From positions 199,966 through 263,965 of the forward strand of contig JAUIBK010000001.1 in assembly GCA_030428205.1 (NCBI GenBank): a stretch of 64,000 nt of DNA, given 5' to 3'. The notes under the pieces are model-generated. The model was not told the DNA's origin. It saw only the letters and a list, made by a program, of their open reading frames with translations, and ran no database searches. This DNA is from a bacterium. Lineage in GTDB: Bacteria; Bdellovibrionota_C; UBA2361; RFPC01. Position numbers and translations under genes: made by a program. Shown piece after piece: positions 5,380-22,273 of this stretch (position 1 is its first letter; the number at the start of each line of letters is the position of its first letter).

Positions 5380-8300
5380 ATGGCAAGAAAAATCAAGAGT
5401 AACCTTCGTCTCCGCCGCAACTATTCAAAAATTGAAGAGGTTGCAGAGATTCCCCATCTCGTTGCCATTCAAAAAGAATCATACGAGCGTTTTCTCCAAG
5501 CCGATGTTGAGCCAGAAAAGCGAGAAGAGATCGGCCTCGAAAAAGTTTTCAAATCTGTTTTTCCTATTTCAGATTACAACAACACTTCCACTCTAGAGTA
5601 CGTTTCGTACACGCTCGGTAAGCCGAAGTATGACGTAGATGAGTGTCGTGATCGTGGCATGACTTGGGCAGCGCCCCTTCGTGTAACGATTCAACTTGTT
5701 CTCTGGGATGTTGATCCTGACAGTGGCGCGCGAACATTGAGTGCACTGAAAGAAGACGTTGTGTATTTTGGTGAAATCCCTTTGATGACAGAGAAGGGAA
5801 CGTTCCTTATTAACGGAACAGAGCGTGTTATCGTGAGCCAACTTCACCGTTCTCCAGGTGTCTTCTTTGCGCATGATGACGGAAAGAGCCACGTTTCCGG
5901 GAAGCTTCTCTATAGCGCCCGTGTGATTCCTTACCGTGGCTCATGGATCGATCTTGAATTTGATATTAAAGACATTTTACACGTTCGTATCGACCGTCGC
6001 CGTAAGCTTAACGTAACGGTTCTGCTCCGTGCGCTTGGGTATGGCAGCGATGACATCCTTGAGATGTTCTACAATACGGACACTATTAACTTCGGTAAGC
6101 GAGGGCTGGTAACAAAGGAATTTGTTGCCTCTCAGCTCGAAGGACAAAAAGCCTATAAAGAGATTAAGTCCGGCTCAAAAGTCCTCTGTAAAAAGTCTGG
6201 TAAGTTTAACCGTGCTGTTATCCGCCGCATGAAAGAGGCGGGAATTACAAACATCGAAATCGATCCTGAATCACTCTCAGGAATGGTTGTTGCCGATACC
6301 GTTCTTCAAGCTGAAGAGGATGTTGTTCACCCTGAAACCGGTGAGATTATCGCCGACTCTGGTGAGCTTCTGATTGGCTGGGATGTGATTAAAGAGCGGT
6401 TTGGTGAAATCGTTGAAAACTTCCCCGAAGACAAAATTCGTGAACTCTTCGAAGATGTCGAAGTTCTGATCTACGCTGGTGAAGAACTCACACCTGATAA
6501 GGTAAACGCTAAAGGCGAAGTGGTTGAGCAGGGAACACTCTCTCTTCTTCAAAGCCAAGGTGTTGAACATCTCCGTGTGCTTTATCTTGAAGATAATCAC
6601 ATTGGCGACGCTCTTCTGAAGACTCTCCTCACTGATAAGATGGATCCTGAGCGTGAAGACATTTACGCGCGTCTTGCAGGCTTTCCAACAACAGAGAGCT
6701 TGATAGAGATTTACCGTCGCCTTCGACCAGGAGATCCACCACGTCCTGAAACAGCGGCAGCTACATTTAAGAACCTCTTCTTTAATGCAGACCGATACGA
6801 TCTCTCTGATATCGGCCGCTATAAGATGAATCACAAGCTGTACGTCTCTCAAGGAAAAGAGGCGCCTTCCCTTGAGCAAGGGGTGCTTTCTGAGGGGGAT
6901 ATCGTCGAAACCGTTCGCTACCTCCTTAACCTCCGTAACGGAACAGATCCTGTTCGATACTCTATTGATGATATCGATCACCTCGGTAACCGTCGTGTGC
7001 GTGCTGTTGGTGAGCTGATTGAGAACCAATTCCGAATCGGTCTCGTTCGTATGGAGCGTGCTGTTAAAGAGCGTATGGGGATGCAAGATGTCGAAACGCT
7101 TGTTCCACAAGACCTTATTAACTACAAGCCGGTTGCTGCCGTCGTGAAAGAGTTCTACGGCTCGTCGCAACTTTCTCAGTTTATGGATCAAACCAACCCT
7201 CTCTCAGAGATCACGCACAAGCGTCGTCTCTCTGCGCTTGGGCCTGGAGGTTTGACCCGTGATCGTGCTGGTTTTGAGGTACGTGACGTTAACCCAACTC
7301 ACTACGGTCGTATCTGTCCGATTGAAACTCCTGAAGGACCAAACATCGGTCTTATTTCCTCGCTTGCTGTGTATGCGCGTGTGAACGAGTTTGGGTTTCT
7401 TGAGACTCCTTACCGTGTCATCGATAACGATAGCAAAGTAACAGGTGATGTTGTTTACCTCTCAGCACTTGAAGAAGAACAAGAGACCATTGCTCAAGCG
7501 AGTGCTGAAGTAGCTGATGATCAATCGTTTGCCTCAAATGCTATCTCAGCTCGTGCGAAGGGAGAATATATCTTGGCTGCTCCAGACGGGGTTACCAAAA
7601 TGGACGTCAGCCCGAAGCAGATTGTGTCTGTTGCTGCTGCGCTGATTCCTTTCCTTGAGAATGATGATGCGAACCGTGCCCTGATGGGATCGAACATGCA
7701 ACGCCAAGCTGTTCCGTGTCTCCGTACACAAGCTCCGCTTGTTGGAACGGGAATGGAGCAAACTGTTGCTCGTGATTCTGGAGCCACGGTCGTTACGAAG
7801 CGTTCTGGTAAGGTCGTTTCAGTTGATTCAGAGCGTATCGTTGTTCGTGCTGATAAGACGACGGACGATCCTCTCGATACCGGTGTTGATATTTACAACC
7901 TCGTTAAATACCGACGTTCAAACCAAGATACGTGTATTAACCAACGGCCTATTATCGCTCCTGGTGAAAAAGTCACTGCTGGAGAGATCATCGCCGATGG
8001 ACCTAGCACGGAGATGGGTGAACTTGCTCTCGGTCAAAATGTTGTTGTCGCCTTTATGCCGTGGCACGGATACAACTTTGAGGATTCGATTCTCATCAAC
8101 GAAAACTTGGTGAAAAACGATATCTTCACCTCTATCCACGTTGAGTCTTTCGAGGCTGTTGCTCGTGATACGAAGCTCGGAAAAGAAGAGATTACACGTG
8201 ATATTCCAAACATCGGTGAAGACGCACTAAGCGATCTCGATGAGTCTGGAATTATCCGCATCGGTGCGGAGGTGAGCCCTGGTGACATTCTCGTTGGAAA

Positions 8301-9858
8301 AATTACTCCAAAGAGTGAAACCCAGCTCAGCCCTGAAGAAAAACTCCTCCGTGCAATCTTCGGTGAAAAAGCTGGAGAGGTGCGCGACACCTCACTCAAG
8401 CTCCCTCCGGGTGTTGAAGGAACGGTTATCGCAACTCAAGTTTTCTCACGTAAAGGAACGGAGAAAGATGAGCGTGCGATGCAAATCGAGAAGCGTAATC
8501 TCGCTCGACTCGAGCAGGACTACCGCGATGAGATCTTCATCATTCGTGACGCAGCATTTAAAGAAGTCAATGAGCTTCTTGGTGGGAAGCAAACTTCTGC
8601 TCGACTCGTTGACGAGAATCGTTCAGAGCTTATCGCGAAAGGTGCATCACTCACCTTAGAAATGCTCAAAGATGTTCCATTTGAATATCTCCGAGATATC
8701 CAAATCGGTGACGAGACAGTGCAAGAACGTGTAAATCAGATCGTTGTTCGAACTGGCCAGCTTATGAACAGTAAGCGTGCTGTGCTCAATGAAAAGATTA
8801 ACCGCCTCAAAGAGGGTGACGAACTTGCTCCTGGTGTCATTAAGATGGTTAAGGTCTTTGTCGCCATTAAGCGTAAGATTCAGGTGGGTGATAAGCTCGC
8901 TGGACGCCACGGAAACAAAGGTGTTCTTTCTAAGATCGTCCCACAAGAAGATATGCCATATCTTCCTGACGGAACTCCGGTTGACATCGTGTTGAACCCA
9001 CTTGGGGTACCTTCACGTATGAACATCGGACAGATCCTTGAGACTCACCTCGGTTGGGCCGCGCACAATATCGGAAAAGTGGTTCGTGAGCGTCTCGATA
9101 CAGTTATCGATCCAATGACTGGAGCTGCCAGAAAAGGAAGCACTGCGGATGAGCGCAAAGAAGTAGCGCAATTCCTCCGTGGCCTCTTTACACAAGCTCT
9201 TGCTGAGCCTGAAAAGATTGCTTTCATCGAAAAGCTCTCTGAAGACGGCCTGATCGAGTTTGCTCGTCGTGAGATGGACGGAGTTCACTTTGCTACTCCA
9301 GTTTTTGACGCAGCGAGTGAAGGCGAAATTGAGCAGATGCTTGAGCTCTGTGGTCAAGAAGCGAGTGGTCAGGTGGATCTCATTGATGGTCGTACTGGCA
9401 AGCAGTTTGAAGAGAAGGTTACGGTTGGGGTGATGTATATCCTTAAGCTCAACCACCTTGTTGATGACAAGATTCACGCACGTTCGATTGGACCATACTC
9501 TCTTGTGACGCAACAACCACTCGGCGGTAAAGCGCAGTTTGGTGGTCAACGTCTCGGTGAGATGGAGGTGTGGGCGCTTGAAGCATACGGTGCTGCGTAC
9601 AGCCTCCAGGAATTCCTTACTGTCAAATCTGATGACGTAACAGGTCGTACGCGTATGTACGAGTCGATCGTCAAAGGAGAGCACGTGCTTGAGCCAGGTC
9701 TTCCTGAGTCCTTTAACGTTATGGTCAAAGAGCTTCAAGCTCTCGGGCTTGATGTTGAGCTCGTTGAAGAACGAGATGAAGAGGACGAAGAGGACGGTGA
9801 ACTTACAGAGCCTGTCCCAACCGTTATCGGTGGCGACGGTGCAGCGAGTGCTTCGTAA
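5380..9858 (+). CDS. rpoB: DNA-directed RNA polymerase subunit beta (1492 aa, with lineage-specific insertions and an acidic C-terminal tail)
   Basis: Conserved RpoB blocks: [33 protein letters not shown], rifampicin cluster region, NMQRQAVP, the C-terminal catalytic motifs. Confidence 0.97.
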
Positions 9859-9943: not shown

Positions 9944-12900
9944 ATGGACGACTTGTTCAGCTTGTTTGAGAAGCCAAAGAACCCAGTAAAATTCAACGCG
10001 CTGCGGATTGCTTTGGCGAGTCCCGAGAAGATTCGAAGCTGGTCTTTTGGTGAGGTAACAAAGCCTGAGACGATTAACTACCGAACACTCAAGCCAGAGC
10101 GCGACGGTCTTTTTTGCGCAAAGATCTTTGGGCCTATCAAGGACTATGAGTGTATCTGCGGAAAGTATAAGCGCCTTCGACACCGTGGTGTTGTCTGTGA
10201 GAAGTGTGGCGTTGAAGTTATACAATCAAAAGTTCGTCGTGAGCGAATCGGTCATATTGAGCTTGCGTGTCCAGTTGCACACATCTGGTTTCTCAAAAGC
10301 TTACCGAGTCGTATTGCTACTATTCTTGATATCACGCTCCGTGATCTTGAGAAGGTGCTCTACTTTGAGAGCTACATCGTTACCGATCCGGGTGATGCCG
10401 AAGACCTCTCATACGGAGAACTTCTCTCAGAGAAAGAGTACCGTACAGCACGAGAGGAGTACGGCACTGAGTTTGAAGCAGGTATGGGAGCAGACACTGT
10501 TCTTACGATGCTCAAAAATATAGAAGTTGAAACACTCTATGATCAACTTCGAGTAGATATTCTTGAAGCTACTTCTGAAGCAAAGCGCAAGAAGTACGCC
10601 AAGCGTCTCAAAGTTGTTTCTTCTTTTAAGAACAGTGACAACCGACCTGAGTGGATGATCCTTAGCGTTGTTCCCGTTATTCCTCCAGATCTCCGTCCAC
10701 TTGTTCCGCTTGATGGTGGACGATTTGCAACAAGTGATCTTAACGATCTCTACCGCCGCGTCATTAACCGTAACAACCGTCTCAAGCGTCTTATGGAGCT
10801 CAACGCTCCAGACATCATTATCCGAAACGAAAAGCGGATGCTCCAAGAGTCCGTTGATGCTCTGTTTGACAACGGTCGTCGTGGAAGAACAATTACGGGG
10901 CCAAACAAGCGCCCACTCAAGTCGCTCAGTGATATGCTGAAAGGAAAAGGTGGGCGTTTCCGTCAGAACCTCCTTGGAAAGCGTGTGGATTACTCTGGCC
11001 GTTCGGTTATCGTTGCTGGTCCAAGCCTTCGGCTTCATCAGTGTGGTCTCCCAAAGAAGATGGCTCTCGAACTCTTTAAGCCGTTTATCTACAACAAGCT
11101 CGAAGAGCGTGGTTATGTAACCACGATTAAGAGTGCGAAGAAGATGGTTGAAAAGAAGAAGTCCGTTGTTTGGGATATCCTCGATGAGGTTATTAAAGAG
11201 CACCCAGTGCTTCTTAACCGCGCACCGACCCTCCACCGTCTTGGTATTCAAGCTTTTGAGCCTCTTCTCGTTGAAGGAAAGGCGATTCAGCTTCATCCAC
11301 TTGTTTGTACAGCCTTTAACGCCGACTTTGACGGCGACCAAATGGCTGTTCACGTTCCTCTCTCTGTCGAAGCGCAGGTTGAGGCTCGTGTGCTTATGAT
11401 GTCAACAAACAACATCCTCAGCCCAGCTGACGGAAAGCCGATTATTGTACCATCTCAAGATATCGTTCTTGGGCTCTACTATATGACTCGTGAACGACCA
11501 TTTGCCAAAGGCGAAGATCGTATCATGAACGGCTTTGAGGAAGTGCACCTTGCTTGGGAAGCTGGAGAAGTTGATCTCCAAGCCAAGATCAAGTGTCGCA
11601 TGGACGGAGAGCTGTATGAGACAACTGTTGGTCGTGTCCTTCTTTATGGACTCACTCCAGACGATCTCCCGTTCTCATTTTTTAACAAAGTGATGAAGAA
11701 GAAGGAGATCTCTGCACTCATCGATTCTTGCTTCCGTATTGCCGGAAACAAGGCCACGGTGCTTCTCGCTGATAAGCTCAAAGACGTTGGATACCGTTTC
11801 GCGACAATCGCTGGCATCTCCATCGGTGTGAAAGACATGGCGATTCCCGATACGAAGGTTACGCTCCTGGCTGAAGCTGATGATAAGGTTGGTGAGATCG
11901 ATAACCAGTACCAAGAAGGCCTTATTACCGCTGGTGAGCGCTACAACAAAGTGATCGATATCTGGTCAGATGTTGGTGACCGCATTAGTGAAGATCTTAT
12001 GACGAATATCTCTACTCAAGAGTTCACGGATGGGGAAAACACCCGTCGTGGAGCTTCGTTTAACTCGATCTACATCATGGCTGACTCTGGTGCTCGGGGT
12101 TCCCAGCAGCAGATTCGTCAGCTCGGTGGAATGCGTGGTCTGATGGCGAAGCCGGATGGCTCCATTATTGAGCAGCCAATTAAGGCGAACTTACGTGAAG
12201 GACTCTCGGTTCTTCAGTACTTCGTATCTACCCACGGTGCTCGTAAAGGTCTCGCTGATACAGCTCTGAAAACTGCGAACTCTGGATATCTTACCCGTCG
12301 TCTTGTTGACGTGTCTCAAGATTGTATCGTCACTCTCAATGACTGTGAGACAACAGAGGGTGTTGAGATTACGGCTCTTGTAGAAGGTGGTGAAGAGATT
12401 GAACCACTTACAAACCGTATTCTCGGTCGTATCGCTGCTGATGATATACTTGATCCAATCACCAATGAGGTTCTTGTTCGTCGTAACGAAGAGATTGATG
12501 AAGATAAGTGTAACATCATCTCTGAGAGTGGTCTTGATTCCGTCATTATCCGTTCGCCACTTACATGTGAGAGCGAGCGCGGTATCTGCGTGAAGTGTTA
12601 CGGTCGTGACCTTGCTCGCGGACACGTTGTAAACGTTGGTGAGGCGGTCGGAGTTATCGCTGCGCAATCAATTGGTGAGCCGGGTACACAGCTTACGATG
12701 AGAACGTTCCACATCGGTGGTGCTGCTTCTGGTCGTGCTGAGCAAAGCTCACTTGAAGCTCGCTTCCCAGGGAAGGTCAAGCTTGAAGACGCACGACTTG
12801 CTGAAAAGCGCGATGGTTCCTTTGTCGTGATGAGCCGTAAGGCCCAGCTTGTTATCGTCGATCCATCTGATAACCGTGAGCGTGAGCGTCATCCTATTGT

Positions 12901-14068
12901 TTACGGTGCGCACCTTCGTGTTCCAGAAGGAAAAGAAGTTGAGTCTGGTGAGCTTCTCGCAGAATGGGATCCATTCACTATTCCTGTCCTCTCCGAAGTT
13001 GCTGGTCGTGTTGAGTGGCAAGACCTCAACGAGCAGACGATGGAAGAGCGTACCGATGAACGTACCGGGTTCTCCGAGCGTGAAATTATCCAAGCGAAAG
13101 ATAAGAGTAGTGATCTCAAGCCTCGTATCGTTATCTACGGTGAGAGTGGGGATACAAAAGTCTACAACCTCCCTGTTGGGGTACGACTTGTTGTTGAACA
13201 CAACGCCGATATCGATGCTGGTGATGTTATTGCTAAGCGAGAGCGTGCAACGACGAAGACAAAAGATATTACTGGTGGTCTCCCACGAGTAGTAGAACTC
13301 TTTGAAGCGCGTAAGCCAAAAGATCCGGCGTTTGTTGCTGATGTTGATGGAACGATTGATTTTGGTGAAGACTCACGTGGTAAGCGTCGTATGATTCTTA
13401 CACCTGAGTTCGGTGAGCCAATTGAGTACCTTGTTCCAAAAACAAAGCACATTGCAGTTCAAAAAGGCGACTCGGTACGAGCTGGAGAATCTCTCACAGA
13501 CGGATCGATTAGCCCGCACGATATCTTACGTATCGAAGGCCGCAAAGCTCTCTCTGCGTATCTTGTAAATGAAGTACAAGAGATCTACCGACTCCAAGGT
13601 GTACGAATCAACGATAAGCACATCGAAGTTATTGTTCGTCAGATGCTCCGTCGTGTAACGATCACTGAGTTCGGTGATTCAGACTTCTTGCCTGGTACCA
13701 ACGTGGATCGCTTTGAAGTGCTCCGTGAGAACCAGCGCATCATGAACGAAGGTGGAACGCCTGCAACGTATGCACCGCTTCTCCTTGGTATTACCAAAGC
13801 AGCTCTTTCAACTGACTCCTTTATCTCAGCAGCAAGCTTCCAAGAGACAACAAAAGTTCTCACCGAAGCTTCTATCTCTGGGTCTATTGATACCCTTCAA
13901 GGACTCAAAGAGAATGTGATCATGGGGCGTCTTATCCCTGCCGGTTCTGGTCTCATTGAGTACCAAGAGCGTGAGGTAAAACTCGAAGGGGAGGAAGAGG
14001 AAGAAGAAGTACAATCCGATTTCCGAATCGGCCAAACTTCTCTCGAGTCTCTTGCTGGGCTCTTGTAG
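9944..14068 (+). CDS. rpoC: DNA-directed RNA polymerase subunit beta'
   Basis: N-terminal zinc-binding cysteines ([20 protein letters not shown]), NADFDGDQM catalytic motif, 1374 aa. Confidence 0.97.
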
Positions 14069-14096
14069 AGCTCTTCTTTTTCAAGAGAGTTCTTCG

Positions 14097-14130
14097 AAAA
14101 GGGAGCGCCATTTGGCGCTCCCTTTTTTTT
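14097..14130 (+). terminator. strong rho-independent terminator after rpoC
   Basis: aaaa-gggagcgcc-attt-ggcgctccc-tttttttt. Confidence 0.8.
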
Positions 14131-14166
14131 GGGGCGGTAGCCTTGAGAAACCTCGCCTTTTCGTTA

Positions 14167-14254
14167 CCACTTACTTGAACTTTTTTCTCCGTGGCTAAGA
14201 TTGTAGAGTAAGGCTGAAGAATCATGCCACGGAGAAAAAAGTTCAAGTAAGTGG
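14167..14254. repeat. perfect 28-bp inverted repeat with a 32-nt spacer
   Basis: ccacttacttgaacttttttctccgtgg (14167-14194) and ccacggagaaaaaagttcaagtaagtgg (14227-14254) are exact reverse complements. Confidence 0.8.
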
Positions 14255-14385
14255 CTGTTCAACCCTATGACCTTCTGACTCCCCATGCCTTGAGCTCTAT
14301 AGAAATGTGTTGACATCTCATGCTGTGCATTCGATGGTTTTGCTATCCCTCTTGCTGTTCACCCAACTTCTCCTAAGGAGGATGC

Positions 14386-15219
14386 ATGATTCGTTTCACA
14401 TTTGGTTTGATATGTTCTGCTCTTCTTGCCTCGAATGCCCTTGCTCTTGTTCCTTCCGTAAGTGAAGTAACAGACAACAGAACCACAGGTCAGTTCTTCT
14501 CAGGGTTGAAGCTTAAAGTACAGCTTGTTGGTGATGAGATGAACGATGTTAAAGGCATCCGCTATATGCTCAAGACGGCCATTGATGACACAGGTCGTAA
14601 TCTTATTGATCCCGAAAAACAAACTGCTGAATTTAAACCTTACAACCAACAGAGCTGGCACCAAAAATACCTCGAACTCGAGCTCAAAAATCCATCTCGA
14701 AAAGCAGCCACCATTAAAGAGATAGCCGGTGAGATTGTGCTCTATATGCCATCAAAAGACCCAAACTCTAAAGTTGAATTCGCCAATGCGCTCTCTCTGA
14801 GTGGCAAACCTCTCAAGCATAATGGCTTACGTGCCGCTGAGGTTAAAATGACCATTTATGACAAAGCCGCCTACGACAAGAAAAAAGCTGATGAAAAGGC
14901 CAAGCAAGAGGCAGCAGCCAAAGGTACACAAGGCGGAATGCGACAGGCTTTTCAAAATATGTTCGGTGGTTTTATGAGCATGGGTGAGAATGATATTGCC
15001 TTTGAAATTGATGACCCAAAAGGTCGTATCGTGAATTACATGTTCGTCGATAGCGCTGGAAACGAGGTGAAACGGATGAGCTGGATAACCTCTGGGGATA
15101 TTCGGACGACTTCATTTCAATCACCGGTTCCAGTTGATGCTAAGTTTGTTGTAGAACTTGCTACACCTAAGAGTGTACTGAGCATTCCTCTTGCATTTAG
15201 CAACGTCGCTTTGCCATAG
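14386..15219 (+). CDS. hypothetical secreted protein (signal peptide; no recognisable domain)
   Basis: N-terminus MIRFTFGLICSALLASNALALV is signal-peptide-like. AGGAGG RBS. Lies directly upstream of the PAAR protein. Confidence 0.6.
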   Translation: MIRFTFGLICSALLASNALALVPSVSEVTDNRTTGQFFSGLKLKVQLVGDEMNDVKGIRYMLKTAIDDTGRNLIDPEKQTAEFKPYNQQSWHQKYLELELKNPSRKAATIKEIAGEIVLYMPSKDPNSKVEFANALSLSGKPLKHNGLRAAEVKMTIYDKAAYDKKKADEKAKQEAAAKGTQGGMRQAFQNMFGGFMSMGENDIAFEIDDPKGRIVNYMFVDSAGNEVKRMSWITSGDIRTTSFQSPVPVDAKFVVELATPKSVLSIPLAFSNVALP

Positions 15220-15302
15220 TACACTTTCCATTTTAAGTTGCTGTAAGCCTTGGGGATTTTCTAGTCCTAACTATGAACAGAGCCGGACTTAAGGCCTGAT
15301 TT

Positions 15303-18300
15303 TTGCTATACTCCCAGGGACGTGTCTTTCCTTGGGAGCTAGTGCCAGTGCCTTTCCGCCTTCTTTTCACAGTTTTCTTTTTTCTGATTTCACACTCGGT
15401 AGCTGCTGAGCAGGTCGACTTTATCTTCAATGGAGATCTGAGCATAAATTGCCATGACGGCACACTCGCTTCCGAGGGGCAATCGTGTGCGAAAAGTGTT
15501 GTTCTGAGTTCTGACTGGAGCATGAGGATCCTCCGAGAAACTCATGCAACCTCTGAGCTTATGCTCTCAGGGAGTGGAGGATCTATTAATACCACTATCC
15601 CTGGATGGACTCCTCGGGATAGTTTCTCTGTGCCTGGAGATCGAATCCGATTAGAGATCTTTCAAAATGCAGGTGCAAGTGGAGATAGTTGCTTTTATCT
15701 CGGAGATGTTTGGGCACACCTTAGAGATCCTCATGACCCTGAGACGAGTTTCTGTCGTTTTTTAGTCTACAAAGACGTTGGTGAAGTCTGCCTTCCTCCT
15801 GGCGGAGTAGCTTCGCAAATGATCTTTGTGCCGCATATTCCTGATGGATGTGATGGGAATCTCTCTGCTTCTGCCACTGTTGAGAACGAATCGATCGAGG
15901 TCGGAGAGGAGCTCAGTACGAGAATTTCTCTCCTCACGAGCACCACAGGTGTTATCACTCGGGGGTGTTGGCCAGGGGTGTTGCACTATAAAGATCTAGC
16001 CTTAGGAAAGGCAGATATTGGCACTCCTCTCGATGAGACTACCTATGGGTATCCAAGCTCTATTACACCAGGTGGCTGCACTCCTGACTACCCATATGTC
16101 ATGAATCCTCATAGTGAACGACATGTCGAGTACGTTGGCCCTGTAAACAAGCCTGGAGTTGTTTCACTTATTCCTGAGGTTCCTTTCTATTCCGTCTTTG
16201 AAACTCCAGATGCTACTGGGCATATGGTTTTTAGTGATCTGAACACAACCGTGGTCACTGTTACAGGAGGCTTAAGGATTCAGGCATTAGCACCAGAGTC
16301 TATACCCGCTGATGGTGAGGTATTTGACATTCAAGTCTCTATCACAAATCAAGGTCAGAAGTCCGCAACATTACCAGAAGCTAACTGCTACGACTATGTG
16401 TATCAAGTTGCCTGTTCTCAGCCTGATCAGGAGTGTTCAAAAACTCAAGTTATTCTGCCGCTTTCAAATCAACCTACAATGGCGGAGGTAACTCTTGCTG
16501 GTGGTCAATCACACTCTTTCACCTGCTCTTACCTAGCTATATCTGAGGGAAGTGTCGACTTCTCGTTTGCAACGACTTGGGAACATCAAAGTGGTAACCC
16601 CGTTTTTACTGATTATTCCTGTGACTCCCATCCTCAAGGAGGAGCACGGTGTTTTGAGCCCACTTTTCAAACTGATAACCGCACAGTTGTTCGAGTCGGT
16701 ATAGGGCCTGGTGGTGAGTGTGGTGATGGGATTATCGATGAGTCTGAGCAGTGTGATGGTGGAGACTGTTGTACGGAGGAATGTACCTACAGAAAATCAG
16801 GTGAACTTTGTCAGGGCGAGAGTATTTGTGCAGAGTCAAATGTTTGTGATGGGCTCTCTGGAGAATGCCGCGGGGCAGATGAAGATCCTAGTATTGAATC
16901 GGTAGAGTTCTCCTTGCTTACTCCTTTAGGTTCGAGCCCAGTGGTGCTGAGTACTGGTTGGGAGTTTGGTGTGAACGCGACAGCTCAGTGTTCAAATGGA
17001 CTCACGAGAGATCTTTCGAGTTATGTAGAGTGGTCAGGAACTGGGACGTTTTCACCTTCGCAGGGAGTTCGCTCTCGTCCTTCGTTTTCGTCACCGGGAA
17101 TCAATTCTATTCGATTTGAGTATGCAGGAGCTTCGCTTTTTGCAGATGAAGTGTCTGTTACGACAAAGTCAGCAAGTGGTTTTGCCGCTGTCGGTGACGA
17201 GGCTTTTTGTCCAGCAGATAGTCATGGAGCCCCCACTGATCCACATGCTGTACAAGGCCCTATTCTTCGAGGAAGCACCTTAGTTACCCTAGGTGGGGCA
17301 CCTGCTGCGCGTATCGGAGATCCAGGAGAGCATGCTGCTTGCTCTGGGCCGAACTCCTTTGTTGTAGCTGCTGGAGATCCTGAGGTCTCAGTTCTTGGAA
17401 GAGCGTTAGCCAGACATGGAGACGCCACAAGCCACTGTGGCGGGAATGGTTCTATCATTTCACCAAAGCTCTCTCTTCCATCAACGTTATCTCTCCGATC
17501 TTCAGGAAGTGGGCAGGTCTCTGGGCGTGTTACTGGTCCAAACGGCGCACCACTTTATGGTATCGCGGTGTCTCTTTTTGATGGAACTGGCAATATTTAT
17601 ACAGCGTGGTCTGATGAGTTAGGCGACTATGTTATAGATAGCCTTCCCGCCGGGAGTTTTACACTTGAATGTAACGGTGCAACGGTGGGTTTACCTGGTA
17701 TCATGCTTAGAGATGGCGTAGGTCTACCCCCTAAGACTTTGAGTCTTGGTGAGGGAGCATCTCTTGTGGGACAAAACTGCACGCTTCCAACCGGAGGTGT
17801 TCTTGCTGGGGTTGTTACCGATACTGCCTTATCTCCGGTAAGTGGCGTTTGGGTCCACGCACGCCCTACGGATCCCACATTTGTGGGCTCGTCTGTACTC
17901 ACTTCCGCTGACGGCTCTTACTCTCTTTCTGGTCTTCTCGAGGGTACCTATCGAGTCTTCGTCTCTGGTAGTGAAGAAGGATTTGAAGACACCTATTATC
18001 CCAACTCAAGAAAGTGGGAACAAGCTCGTATCCTCTCCGTTAAAAATGGCCAAACACAAAAAGGATTAGCTATTCGACTTTCGCTTTTGAATCCTTACGA
18101 ATCTTGTTCTTCTACTTCGCTCATACTCCAAGAGATTCGCTTAGCTCAACTGTTTCGTGAGCAACACAGCTTGGTAACTAAAGCGTCACGTGTGTATAAG
18201 AAAGCTGCGCGTGGTATTGGAGAAAAATTTAAAAAGCGAATAAAGAAAGCAAAGAAGAAAGCAAATATATTGCTTGAAGATTCAAGTGCTGCACTCCAAG

Positions 18301-18563
18301 AACTCCCTCCTGTATCATATTCGGATTGTGGAGGAATTTCACCAGAATGCGTTTCAACTTCTAACGCGAGTGTAAAAAGCTCACTCCTGCTCTTCTCTCA
18401 ACGTCTCTTTCGCGAGACAAAGAAGCTTGTTGCTCGGGAAAAGAAACTTCGAGGGAGTAATACAAAGAGGGCCAAGAAAACGAGAAAGAAAGCACGAAAA
18501 TTTAAAAAAGAGTTATTCTCGCTTGTAGAGGCACTCCCGGGTCAAACCGTGAGCTGTAGTTGA
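15303..18563 (+). CDS. large secreted multidomain protein: N-terminal beta-rich region, Myxococcus-type cysteine-rich repeat, Ig-like domain, PAAR motif domain, two carboxypeptidase-regulatory/transthyretin-like beta-sandwich domains, Lys-rich C-terminal tail
   Basis: PAAR motifs GSTLVTLGGAPAARIGDPGEH...EVSVLGRALARHGDATSHCGG at nt ~17190-17470. Cys-rich ECGDGIIDESEQCDGGDCCTEEC at ~16705-16880. GVVTD...SADGSYSLSGLLEGTYRV TTR-like repeats. C-terminal KKAKKKA...KRAKKTRKKARKFKK. The likely true start is the GTG at 15342 or 15348, giving the signal peptide MPFRLLFTVFFFLISHSVAA with GGGAG 9 nt upstream. Confidence 0.75.
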   Translation: MLYSQGRVFPWELVPVPFRLLFTVFFFLISHSVAAEQVDFIFNGDLSINCHDGTLASEGQSCAKSVVLSSDWSMRILRETHATSELMLSGSGGSINTTIPGWTPRDSFSVPGDRIRLEIFQNAGASGDSCFYLGDVWAHLRDPHDPETSFCRFLVYKDVGEVCLPPGGVASQMIFVPHIPDGCDGNLSASATVENESIEVGEELSTRISLLTSTTGVITRGCWPGVLHYKDLALGKADIGTPLDETTYGYPSSITPGGCTPDYPYVMNPHSERHVEYVGPVNKPGVVSLIPEVPFYSVFETPDATGHMVFSDLNTTVVTVTGGLRIQALAPESIPADGEVFDIQVSITNQGQKSATLPEANCYDYVYQVACSQPDQECSKTQVILPLSNQPTMAEVTLAGGQSHSFTCSYLAISEGSVDFSFATTWEHQSGNPVFTDYSCDSHPQGGARCFEPTFQTDNRTVVRVGIGPGGECGDGIIDESEQCDGGDCCTEECTYRKSGELCQGESICAESNVCDGLSGECRGADEDPSIESVEFSLLTPLGSSPVVLSTGWEFGVNATAQCSNGLTRDLSSYVEWSGTGTFSPSQGVRSRPSFSSPGINSIRFEYAGASLFADEVSVTTKSASGFAAVGDEAFCPADSHGAPTDPHAVQGPILRGSTLVTLGGAPAARIGDPGEHAACSGPNSFVVAAGDPEVSVLGRALARHGDATSHCGGNGSIISPKLSLPSTLSLRSSGSGQVSGRVTGPNGAPLYGIAVSLFDGTGNIYTAWSDELGDYVIDSLPAGSFTLECNGATVGLPGIMLRDGVGLPPKTLSLGEGASLVGQNCTLPTGGVLAGVVTDTALSPVSGVWVHARPTDPTFVGSSVLTSADGSYSLSGLLEGTYRVFVSGSEEGFEDTYYPNSRKWEQARILSVKNGQTQKGLAIRLSLLNPYESCSSTSLILQEIRLAQLFREQHSLVTKASRVYKKAARGIGEKFKKRIKKAKKKANILLEDSSAALQELPPVSYSDCGGISPECVSTSNASVKSSLLLFSQRLFRETKKLVAREKKLRGSNTKRAKKTRKKARKFKKELFSLVEALPGQTVSCS

Positions 18564-18864: not shown

Positions 18865-20947
18865 TTGTCAGATATAACAGGGGACCTGCAAAGGTACAGA
18901 AACATCGGAATTTTTGCTCACGTTGATGCCGGAAAAACAACAACGACCGAGCGTATCCTTAACCTTACCGGAAAGATTCATAAGCTTGGTGAGGTACACG
19001 ACGGAGAAGCTACAACAGACTTTATGGATCAAGAGCGTGAGCGGGGGATTACCATCCAGTCTGCTGCTACTAGTTGTTCTTGGAACGATCACCGTCTCAA
19101 CATTATTGATACTCCCGGGCACGTGGACTTTACCATTGAGGTATACCGTAGTCTGAAAGTGCTTGATGGTGGTATTGGCGTTTTCTGTGGATCTGGTGGT
19201 GTTGAGCCACAATCGGAAACAAACTGGCGCTATGCAAACGACTCAAAAGTAGCCCGCCTTATTTTTGTAAATAAACTTGACCGAGTTGGGGCTGACTTCT
19301 TCCGAGTAGTGAATCAAGTCAAAGATGTCCTCGGTGCGAAGCCTCTTATTATGACGCTTCCTATCGGAGCAGAGAGTGAGTTTAGAGGTGTCGTGGATCT
19401 CATCACACGTAAAGCTTGGGTGTGGGACGAGTCAGGCGATCCTATGAAGTTTGAGATCCAAGATCCACCAGCAGACATGGCGGATCAGGTTGAGAAGTAC
19501 CGCGAAGAGATGATCGAAACAGCTCTTGAGCAAGATGAAGAAGCTATGGAAGCATACCTCGAAGGTACTGAGCCTAGCGAGGAGGTCATCAAGAATTGTA
19601 TTCGTAAGGGAACAATTGCTCTCGACTTTTTCCCAGCATTTTGTGGCTCAGCATTTAAGAACAAAGGGGTGCAACCTCTTCTTGATGCTGTTGTTGATTA
19701 CCTTCCGAACCCAACGGAAGTCCCACCACAACCTGAAATTGATCTTGAAGGACACCCAACAGGGGAGTTCGCTGTTGCGTGCTCTTGCCTTTAAGATCAT
19801 GGAAGACAGGTACGGAGCACTCACGTTCCTCCGCATTTACTCTGGAAAGCTTGAGAAAGGTACTACGGTTGTAAATACCTACACAGGCCGAAAAGAGCGA
19901 ATCGGTCGGATTGTTGAGATGCACGCGGATTCTCGAGAAGAGCTTAGCTCTGCAAAAGCAGGAGACATCGTTGCTGTACTCGGAATGAAAGAAGTTCAAA
20001 CTGGGCACACGCTTGCTGACCCTGATAACCCAGCAACGCTTGAGCCAATGGTTTTCCCTGATCCAGTTATCTCCATCGCGATTGATACGAAGGAGAAAGG
20101 AGACCGGGATAAGCTTGGAGTTGCACTCTCAAAGATGACTTCGGAAGATCCATCGTTTCGTGTTGAGACAGATGAGGAGACGGGAGAAACTATCCTCAAA
20201 GGGATGGGAGAGCTTCACCTTGATATTAAGATCGACATCATCAAACGCACCTACGGTATTGAGTGTGTCGCTGGTGCTCCTCAGGTTGCTTACCGTGAAA
20301 CAATCACGAAGCGAACAGAAGATAGCTACACACACAAGAAGCAAACGGGTGGATCTGGCCAGTTTGGTAAGATTGACTTCGTTATCGAGCCAAATGAGCC
20401 TGGTGAAGGATTTGAGTTTGTTTCTGAGATTAAAGGTGGAAACGTACCAAAAGAATTTTGGCCTGCTATTGAGAAAGGTTTCAAGCTTAGCCTTGAAGAA
20501 GGCGTGCTTGCAGGCTTTCAATGTATCGATGTGAAGATCACATTGGTCGATGGTGGATACCACGCGGTTGACTCCTCTGCCGTTGCTTTTGAGCTCTGTG
20601 CGAAAGGTGCTTACCGTCAGGTCATGCCAAAGGCTGGGCCTCAGATTCTTGAGCCGATCATGAAGGTCGACTGTTACGTTCCTGAAGATTACGTTGGTGA
20701 TACCATTGGAGACCTTAACCGTCGTCGCGGTATGATTAACTCTCAGGAAGTTGGTGCTACGGGTGCTCGCATCCAAGCGAACGTTCCTCTTTCAGAGATG
20801 TTTGGTTACATCGGTGATCTTCGAACAATGACTTCTGGTCGTGGTCAGTTCTCTATGGAATTCTTGAACTATCAGCCGTGCCCAACCACGGTGACTGAAG
20901 CGGTCATTAAAGAAGCTCAGGAGCGAAAAGAGGCTCGGAATAAATAA
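18865..20947 (+). pseudogene. elongation factor G paralog (EF-G2-like), reading frame broken by a +1 frameshift near 19780-19790
   Basis: Frame 1 (18865-19794, TTG start) encodes the complete G domain ([20 protein letters not shown]...[12 protein letters not shown]...NKLDR) and ends ...[11 protein letters not shown]. Frame 2 resumes ...[25 protein letters not shown] and encodes domains II-V through 20947. Skipping one G restores [12 protein letters not shown], which aligns to [10 protein letters not shown] of the bona fide fusA. Confidence 0.8.
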
Positions 20948-21284
20948 TTCTTAGCTTTTTAGCGAAAAAGCTTCTTAAGGGCGTGTGATACTTTGGTGGT
21001 ATCATGCGCCTTTTGCATATTTGGTACCTCAACTATACCAGGCGCACTTCAAAACGCCCGGCATCTTGTGATGCATTATCCATCCTGGAGAGCATTTTGA
21101 AGTACGCCTGGTACGGCTGTATCTTCCCTCTCCGACTACGCTCTTCGAGCTTCGTCGTGACCTGAGCTCCTAAGGACCACGTCGTAGCCTTTGGCGAAGA
21201 CGGGCGGGGGATACTCCCCGCCGACGGTGCTTATTGAACCGGAAATTTCAAGTGCGGGGAGTATAACTTTTCGCATTAATCTTA

Positions 21285-21345
21285 GTATTAGCCTCCGCCT
21301 TAGCCTATATCTTGGTTTTGGTCTTATTATTGGTATCAGCCTACC
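21285..21345. repeat. solo half-copy (right arm) of palindromic element family 1
   Basis: gcctatatcttggttttggtcttattattggtatcagcct is about 85% identical to the right arm of the elements at 36757-36799 and 42843-42884. Confidence 0.6.
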
Positions 21346-21796
21346 TCTTCAAAAATGAAAACCACGGAGTTTCCGTAGTTCGCGGAGGACTTCACGGAGA
21401 AGTTTATAAATCCCCCTCCGTGAAACTCTCCGTGTTCGCCGTGCCCTCCGTGGTTTATCCATGAATAATGCGGGTTAAACCGAGACTTGGCCCATGGCCT
21501 CGCTTGGAGAAGAGCCTCCTCTGTCTCCTGTTAAATCGGGTCCCATAAGAGCAAATGGTTAGCTGTGGGCAACTTTTATAACCCATTGATAACTTTAGGC
21601 ATATCATGCGCAAGCCCTCCTGCTTGCCCCCTGCTTCAAATACTGTCAAGAATTTCTTTCCCTGAGTTTGACTCTACCCAAATAGACGTGCTATCACATG
21701 CATTCTCGACTGGCGGGAAACTGCTGGTTGGTGCCCCCTGCGCTTGGTGTAAGCCAGTGAAATAAGGGGTTCCTTCCGCGGTCTTCTGTATTTTTT

Positions 21797-21823
21797 GGAG
21801 CTCGCTGAGCTCGTTTTTTTTGT
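21797..21823 (+). terminator. terminator-like hairpin plus T-run inside the ORF-free region upstream of rpsL
   Basis: ggagctc-gct-gagctc followed by gtttttttttg. Confidence 0.45.
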
Positions 21824-22273
21824 TTTTCTATGTGACCCGTTGCAAGTTCACATAGATAGGCCACCAATCAGGTGGAAACAAGAAACGAAACGGTTTAGCG
21901 GGGTATGAGTTGCCCATTAAAAGCGCTCCTGCCACAGAAACGGCAAGATGCAAGGCCTCTAACCTGGGGACGCAACATCTTGGCGGTTTTCCATCGAGGA
22001 CTTCCATAAGTGTTTTGGCACTCGCTTTTCATTGAAAGATGGTAAGTCGAGGGCAAGCAGGATCAAAACCAGGGATTGTGAACATTTACATAGTGTTTCC
22101 GGACTAATCTCTTTTTATAGAGCGTGCTGTTTTCCGGTAATAGTTTTTTAACGATAGCGTTTCACGCTGATTCGTGAAGTTCGCTTGCACTCTTTTTTTT
22201 TGCAAGTAAATGAATCGACTCGGTGGGAAACATTTACTCGAAATGAACTGTAATCATTGAGGGATGAGGCGGG

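Follow-up and report, generated by a model that had tools for sequence, protein, structure and literature searches.

A predicted Sec-exported PAAR protein, probably of the cell surface, encoded at a variable rpoC-rpsL junction

PAAR domains are treated as a hallmark of the spikes of contractile injection machines and are used to call effectors of type VI secretion systems (T6SSs) by guilt by association. The tip of a T6SS or of an extracellular contractile injection system (eCIS) is loaded in the cytoplasm. PAAR proteins with transthyretin-like (TTR) extensions have also reportedly been classified, by Shneider et al. in 2013. Earlier comparative work counted PAAR among the determinants of export by T6SSs (PMC3482391), and in a Salmonella eCIS the tip of the spike is SalCis10 (PDB 9rce; PMC13266070). 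The present analysis concerns a 64-kb stretch of DNA (the window), in which a gene located between rpoC and rpsL encodes a protein of 1,071 residues with a PAAR domain in mid-chain. This large protein is probably a fast-evolving, Sec-exported, disulfide-rich, modular and adhesin-like component of the cell surface or the extracellular space, in which PAAR would serve as a structural or docking knob.

The canonical spike-tip PAARs VCA0105, c1882 and SalCis10 have in common with the large protein the Pfam family PF05488, three PAAR-type motifs, the His and Cys positions and a conical β fold, and plasmid-borne and metagenomic canonical PAARs are 40-48% identical to its PAAR domain. In contrast, canonical PAARs are about 95-140 residues long, begin with M..PAAR.GD, have no export signal, and adjoin genes for VgrG, DUF4123, TssF/G or ClpV, whereas the large protein carries its PAAR at residues 613-706, behind a Sec signal and an immunoglobulin-like (Ig-like) domain, with no contractile injection system (CIS) genes nearby. 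PAAR-TTR proteins are said to have TTR domains directly after PAAR, as this protein does, but to be T6SS components assembled in the cytoplasm and encoded in vgrG islands; the large protein, unlike them, starts with a signal peptide, has about 610 residues ahead of PAAR, includes a Cys knot and ends in a basic tail, and its family has no T6SS linkage. The eCIS tips (Afp10/Pvc10/Cis10) are small and lie within the CIS operon, while no sheath, tube or baseplate genes accompany the 1,071-residue protein in the window. Likeness is also found with Ig-like or prealbumin-like adhesins such as LigA/LigB, SdrD and pilins, which similarly have a signal peptide, strings of β sandwiches, and matches to SdrD_B and CarboxypepD_reg; the fold matches of the large protein include LigB, pilins and S-layer domains. 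Unlike these adhesins, it has no LPXTG, autotransporter or type IX secretion sorting domain, and it possesses a Cys-bounded basic tail in addition to the mid-chain PAAR.

Architecture of the large protein

Residue numbers count from GTG 15348, which is preceded by GGGAG 9 nt upstream and was chosen as the start by an independent gene call. The successive parts of the protein are encoded as follows.

15348-15410, + strand: signal peptide, residues 1-21, with cleavage predicted at SVA/AEQ (the slash marks the cut) by sequence reading and alignment
15411-16712, + strand: all-β N-terminal region, residues 22-455, with 12 invariant Cys and a weak CARDB-like stretch
16713-16883, + strand: disintegrin-like Cys-rich knot, residues 456-512, with 9 Cys
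16884-17183, + strand: bacterial Ig-like domain, residues 513-612, first half of the Ig+PAAR module
17184-17465, + strand: PAAR domain, residues 613-706, containing the three PAAR-type motifs AAVGD, PAARIGD and ALARHGD
17505-18062, + strand: two CarboxypepD_reg/SdrD_B-type (transthyretin-like) β sandwiches, residues ~720-905
18090-18560, + strand: C-terminal basic tail, residues 915-1071, isoelectric point (pI) 10.3, ending ...TVSCS

The PAAR domain announced by the original prediction is well established. Pfam PAAR_motif (PF05488), for which the cutoff is 27 bits, matches the whole protein at E=6e-12 and 46 bits, and the module alone with 54.9 bits. An AlphaFold2 (AF2) model of residues 505-715, built from a 33-sequence alignment, has a predicted local distance difference test (pLDDT) of 90.4 and a predicted template-modelling score of 0.82. 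Foldseek aligns the C-terminal half of this model with c1882 (4jiw_D; template-modelling score (TM) 0.72, root-mean-square deviation 3.2 Å, 30% identity), VCA0105 (4jiv_D; TM 0.71) and phiKZ gp163.1 (TM 0.64). The best match of the large protein among PDB sequences is SalCis10 (E=2e-7), which it resembles in the PAAR domain only, and identity of its PAAR domain to plasmid PAAR proteins is 40-46%. Its sole NCBIfam match, T6SS_PAAR_dom (NF033420), scores 26.9 bits, below the cutoff of 124. As for candidate zinc ligands, all 33 module sequences have H122, C161, H192 and C193, and nearly all have H158.

The domains on either side of PAAR were also read correctly at the outset. The Ig-like domain is modelled with pLDDT >90 and resembles an Ig-like domain of LigB (TM 0.58); G24, S26, G33, W34, W58, G60 and F64 are among its residues that are invariant over the 33 proteins. 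CarboxypepD_reg (PF13620) matches downstream of PAAR in two stretches with E=1e-19, which agrees with the two transthyretin-like domains initially described, and SdrD_B (PF17210) matches at its cutoff. In the database search, residues 719-911 drew thousands of matches to repeat proteins.

Only two full-length homologues were found by an exhaustive HMMER search, P0003 (1,095 residues, 36% identity, E=1e-172), which comes from a Bdellovibrionales metagenome-assembled genome, and P0004 (1,068 residues, 35%, E=1e-169). Both keep the signal peptide, the 12 N-terminal Cys, the Cys knot, the Ig+PAAR unit, the two CarboxypepD_reg domains and the tail. The N-terminus of the large protein is MPFRLLFTVFFFLISHSVA/AEQ, and its A-x-A/E cleavage site (..SA/E..) is aligned in both homologues, in line with the signal peptide predicted earlier. 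The mature protein contains 33 Cys and is acidic (pI ~4.5-5), save for the last 157 residues. The Sec signal and the 33 Cys, of which the 12 in the N-terminal region are invariant, imply folding outside the cytoplasm.

Residues 22-455 probably form three β-sandwich domains. An AF2 model of the N-terminal 439 residues based on three sequences consists of strands throughout, at low confidence (pLDDT 57.6), and it finds only generic Ig-string or macroglobulin-type domains as fold matches, which point to no particular function; the CARDB match in this region is weak (E=0.09 in the large protein and 0.0027 in P0004). For the Cys-rich segment that follows, a Myxococcus-type repeat had been proposed, but TIGR02232 gave no match at E<=0.01. 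The segment resembles a disintegrin instead, below threshold: Pfam Disintegrin (PF00200) scores 19.9 bits against 35.1 and is likewise subthreshold in P0003 and P0004, and the ADAM10 disintegrin region (PDB sequences) matches at E=1.4e-3.

Proteins with export signals that share the Ig+PAAR unit

Word-index searches found few proteins: the whole protein retrieved itself and one weak CarboxypepD_reg match, the tail profile one protein, and the module two. A genome-collection scan with the large protein yielded no relative, its 8-mer patterns being too specific. The exhaustive HMMER search was needed to reveal the family. Beyond the two full-length homologues, about 55 further database proteins have only residues 518-712 in common with the large protein, at 43-52% identity. 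This Ig+PAAR unit of ~190 residues is conserved far above any flanking region; in the module alignment, the unit of the window is 40-49% identical to those of the other 32 proteins, with 23 invariant columns. Export signals in the family were counted by heuristic reading of N-termini, and 52 of the 57 database carriers of the unit start with a hydrophobic signal, eight of these with a lipobox.

A metagenome scan with the module alignment provided 55 loci with the full unit, 48 of them non-redundant (383 kb), together with 24 loci with the PAAR half only, which represent a built-in control. Among N-terminally complete proteins, a hydrophobic N-terminal signal is present in 40/44 Ig+PAAR proteins (18 with a lipobox) and in 1/13 PAAR-only proteins. 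Typically, the former start with a signal peptide or lipobox and the latter at once with M..PAAR.GD. Among loci of at least 6 kb, T6SS genes are found nearby in none of 25 for Ig+PAAR and in four of seven for PAAR-only (Fisher p=0.001). The genes beside PAAR-only loci code for VgrG (Phage_GPD + Gp5_trimer_C), TssF/TssG, ClpV and DUF4123. When these T6SS proteins were used as phmmer queries, their matches adjoined PAAR-only genes in five loci, and none occurred in the 48 non-redundant Ig+PAAR loci, the window, or the loci L002, L082 and L083. The gene calls for the loci L085 and L087 and for the contig of P0052 likewise include no T6SS or eCIS family.

A neighbor-joining tree of the PAAR halves, built without bootstrap, contains one split that separates 10 of 12 canonical PAARs from all 48 Ig+PAAR proteins. 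Two loci (L159 511-831 and L160 6618-6938) encode a stand-alone PAAR of 107 residues, without Ig-like domain or signal, that falls on the Ig+PAAR side of this tree. One of these two has an HGCPACPH signature, and the L160 gene lies downstream of Cpn60 (GroEL) and not by T6SS genes. A phage origin of the Ig+PAAR unit was considered and rejected, as INPHARED yielded no match, and IMG/VR and BFVD matched the PAAR half only.

The large protein and the family thus have in common the 190-residue unit, a signal peptide or lipobox, and often CarboxypepD_reg repeats after the unit. In contrast, most members are 240-520 residues long, only P0003 and P0004 have the full architecture, and the large protein does not have the extra-Cys GCPxCPH and CCGPN common in the family. 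In the members P0016, P0019, P0023 and P0028, the order of parts is a binding domain, Ig+PAAR, CarboxypepD_reg repeats and an anchor-like C-terminal end; that this order matches the one found here fits an adhesin-like stalk. Lipoproteins of ~245 residues constitute a subfamily in which a conserved gene of ~240 codons is found directly upstream, at 0-52 bp, in 14 loci (L101-L103, L111, L113, L117, L125-L127, L130, L136, L139, L146 and L156; e.g., L111 493-1218). Its product has a predicted N-terminal membrane anchor and no Pfam family, and the pair looks like a two-gene envelope operon.

The family has no name in Pfam or NCBIfam, and its JGI label is the generic COG [quoted passage not shown] No such family was described in the literature searched on exported, periplasmic or lipoprotein PAAR and on PAAR in Bdellovibrio. 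The Ig+PAAR proteins thus apparently represent a widespread exported class without T6SS linkage that is undescribed in that literature. The view that a Sec-secreted PAAR protein is unusual therefore holds relative to the literature searched, but within the Ig+PAAR family export is the rule.

The rpoC-rpsL junction, its cargo and the shared tail

The gene of the large protein is part of an 8.2-kb insert between rpoC and the str operon, which is organized as follows.

5380-9858: rpoB
9944-14068: rpoC
14097-14126, + strand: intrinsic terminator hairpin of rpoC, a 14-bp perfect stem followed by a T-run; left edge of the insert
14167-14254: perfect inverted repeat with arms of 29 bp around a 30-nt loop, just past the rpoC terminator, including CCACGGAG/CTCCGTGG
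14386-15219, + strand: upstream open reading frame (ORF), 277 codons
15348-18563, + strand: gene of the PAAR protein (GTG start; 1,071 residues); its longest ORF runs from TTG 15303 (1,086 residues)
18865-20947, + strand: second elongation factor G (EF-G) gene, frameshifted, in two overlapping frames (18865-19794 and 19526-20947)
20948-22273: non-coding stretch of 1.3 kb upstream of rpsL, with ORFs all <=66 codons
22274, 22691, 23198 and 25388: starts of rpsL, rpsG, fusA and tuf (str operon)

The original prediction had placed two non-housekeeping genes in a junction that is normally tight. The two same-strand ORFs (14386-15219 and 15303/15348-18563) are indeed present, but they share the insert with the frameshifted EF-G gene and an ORF-free stretch of 1.3 kb. 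The tightness of the junction is borne out by five relatives of Bdellovibrio or deltaproteobacterial type (54-59% identity over the RpoC C-terminus), in which the gap from rpoC to rpsL is 169-195 bp; it is 718 bp in the relative L003 (78%), against 8,209 bp here. In L002, the closest relative (83% over the RpoC C-terminus), the gap reaches 6,238 bp, and its cargo (11603-17113) consists of a minus-strand subtilase (S8) and a 1,105-residue CSLREA/β-helix protein. The latter ends with the same two-module basic tail as the PAAR protein, and the signal peptides of the two are alike (PFRVMPFLFSIAFLFAHSVAFA in the β-helix protein, PFRLLFTVFFFLISHSVAAE in the PAAR protein). Nucleotide comparison of the junctions of the window, L002 and L003 showed no similarity, and the base composition of the insert has no anomaly and nothing foreign. 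With cargo that also differs, the rpoC-rpsL junction thus behaves as a lineage-specific variable site, occupied by differing secreted proteins that share one tail. A conserved, ancient association of the PAAR gene with rpoC was not observed, as P0003 and P0004 are encoded in other contexts: neither locus is at the rpoC-rpsL junction or has T6SS or eCIS neighbors, and the genes around them code for other large Ig, FG-GAP or β-helix proteins.

The tail itself had been taken for a polylysine coiled coil. It is basic, as stated, but not mere low complexity, since it forms a conserved domain of two Cys-bounded, Lys/Arg-rich modules of ~75 residues each (internal BLAST E=2e-5). Five otherwise different proteins possess it, namely the large protein, P0003, P0004, the L002 β-helix protein and P0152. 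Four Cys and two Pro are aligned in these carriers, whose chains end 0-2 residues past the last Cys. No Pfam or NCBIfam model covers this domain, and a tail HMM run over all fetched loci identified no additional carriers; judging by its sequence, the tail appears to be an undescribed conserved domain. P0152 (L084 8254-9093) is a protein of 279 residues with a CGVCNGDG motif before the tail, and its gene has Tad-pilus genes (TadE, Tad, RcpC) in the vicinity.

The 277-codon ORF upstream of the PAAR gene was initially regarded as encoding a secreted partner. It has an AGGAGG ribosome-binding site, a K/E/A-rich middle part, and an N-terminus that reads like a signal peptide, MIRFTFGLICSALLASNALA/LV. 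Its product has no match in Pfam, NCBIfam, PADLOC, PHROGs or PDB, a large-database homologue search not having been made, and it is unrelated to the conserved protein encoded upstream of the Ig+PAAR lipoproteins (score -1.9). No homologue was found in any fetched locus, including those of P0003 and P0004. A functional pairing is thus unsupported, because no homologue of the ORF lies beside either full-length PAAR homologue.

Both halves of the 18865-20947 gene match EF-G families in Pfam and NCBIfam, and the product is 51% identical to that of the window's own fusA and 55.5% to that of a Pelagibacteraceae fusA. The gene is broken by a 1-nt frameshift near 19771-19790. As the independent Logan contig L001 stops at 19770, exactly at this frameshift, the shift may reflect variation within the population or a fault of the assembly and not a true pseudogene.

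The 29-bp inverted repeat at 14167-14254 occurs once in the window, with 0 occurrences expected by chance, and its RNA fold has a free energy of -56 kcal/mol. Another long hairpin (21359-21456), in the non-coding stretch, contains five copies of CACGGAG/CTCCGTG. Apart from one copy in rpoB, the 8-mer CCACGGAG occurs nowhere in the window but in this pair of hairpins. They flank most of the inserted block and are not present at the junctions of the relatives. Searches of the non-coding stretch with Rfam gave no credible match, and promoter and terminator scans gave chance-level results only; it has no similarity to the matching spacers of relatives (718 bp in L003 and ~620 bp in L002).

The remainder of the window contains ribosomal and housekeeping genes as well as genes for LptE, OmpA, a rhomboid protease and two-component systems. 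Because LptE and OmpA are encoded, the host, an uncultured bacterium related to Bdellovibrionales, is considered to be diderm. In the 346-codon nusG ORF (1517-2557), the NusG domain begins only at residue 174, which suggests a long N-terminal extension or a start called too far upstream.

Possible roles of the Ig+PAAR proteins

In the scheme we favor, the acidic all-β N-terminal part would be the end that binds a ligand or prey, the Ig+PAAR unit a rigid, probably Zn-stabilized knob that may have a structural or docking role once outside the cytoplasm, and the two CarboxypepD_reg domains a stalk. The knob would work without a contractile injection machine, and the basic tail might keep the protein attached to the cell surface, which is anionic, or direct it to that place. 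The gene belongs to a variable island, specific to the lineage, that occupies the rpoC-rpsL junction. Conservation of the Ig+PAAR unit might reflect a conserved binding partner, perhaps a trimeric β helix, or an Ig-like domain that covers the base of PAAR.

Several points weigh against an adhesin-like surface protein that works without injection machines. The search for T6SS and eCIS genes around the large protein covered the 64-kb window, so that such a system may be encoded elsewhere in the genome, and the neighbor screen used two VgrG queries, which divergent spikes could escape. Identity between the PAAR half and canonical spike-tip PAARs still amounts to 40-48%, and its closest relative of known structure, SalCis10, is the tip of an eCIS; because of this closeness, it may retain the ability to cap a trimeric β helix. 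The analysis identified neither a ligand or partner nor an enzymatic domain, so that the term adhesin is argued from architecture only, and the N-terminal model has the low confidence given above. The export call is a prediction from heuristic reading of the sequence and from alignment. Finally, nine database members, including P0064, have later hydrophobic segments, possible anchors that would place PAAR in the cytoplasm.

While the original observation is largely correct, its proposals of a contractile injection component or a polymorphic toxin are not supported. It seems unlikely that the large protein is a genuine spike tip or cargo adaptor of a T6SS or eCIS encoded elsewhere, with an N-terminal hydrophobic segment that is not a Sec signal, comparable to the N-terminal transmembrane domains of prePAAR effectors. 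The PAAR fold and motifs are intact, as expected of such a tip, and SalCis10 as the best solved relative points the same way. A PAAR followed by transthyretin-like domains is also said to be a known T6SS architecture. However, some 610 residues precede PAAR in the large protein, the score for T6SS_PAAR_dom is far below its cutoff, the AxA/E site is conserved, and the presence of 33 Cys, those of the disintegrin-like knot among them, implies that the protein folds oxidatively outside the cytoplasm. An N-terminal hydrophobic segment has a precedent in prePAAR effectors (10.1101/2020.10.28.356139), but many family members have lipoboxes and hence would be exported by Sec/Lol only. No T6SS or eCIS gene is found in the window or by the 48 Ig+PAAR loci, while the canonical PAARs of the same scan have them. 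Rather improbable, too, is a polymorphic toxin or predation effector delivered by Sec and the type II secretion system, in which PAAR would help to pierce the target envelope and an unassigned region would be toxic. One might think of such a protein because it is large, secreted and fast-evolving, is encoded in a variable island of a lineage related to the predatory Bdellovibrionales, and has short relatives with 100-300 unassigned residues past PAAR. Nevertheless, no toxin or enzyme family was identified in Pfam, NCBIfam or PDB, the N-terminal region is predicted to contain β sandwiches only, and the C-terminus is not variable but is the conserved tail shared with the β-helix protein and the 279-residue protein. 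The next gene, moreover, is an EF-G paralogue and not an immunity-like gene.

A very doubtful proposal is that exported Ig+PAAR proteins are decoys or caps, either for the incoming spike tips of phages, tailocins or T6SSs or for the cell's own trimeric β-helical fibers, with a function in envelope defense or fiber capping. Capping of a trimeric β helix is the sole known activity of PAAR (PDB 4jiw, 4jiv), and the conservation of the unit (43-52% identity), much better than that of the flanking domains, suggests a conserved binding partner; the membrane-anchored partner encoded upstream in the 14 lipoprotein loci might be taken in the same sense. On the other hand, this proposal is purely inferential: PADLOC gave no match, no trimeric β-helix partner was identified, and incoming spikes normally carry their own PAAR. 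A Sec-exported, adhesin-like surface protein with a PAAR knob thus remains the explanation that we consider probable.

More tentatively, that explanation could be extended to the family. The Ig+PAAR proteins might represent a large PAAR lineage exported by Sec/Lol that acts in the envelope or outside the cell independently of CISs, and that has here been built into a 1,071-residue surface protein with a new basic sorting or anchoring tail; this protein would be one of a number of secreted cargos that can replace one another at a hotspot between rpoC and rpsL. Within such a lineage, the unit could be a Zn-stabilized cap or docking knob for trimeric β-helical fibers, or else a tip with which non-contractile surface proteins pierce or adhere.

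For the group of PAAR proteins that are exported by Sec or as lipoproteins and do not adjoin T6SS genes, effector prediction based on PAAR over-calls. The existence of this sizeable group would give the fold a second function, one in the cell envelope that is still unexplored. For uncultured Bdellovibrionales-like bacteria, the cargo-swapping rpoC-rpsL site and the tail common to unrelated secreted proteins offer new raw material for studying surface display.

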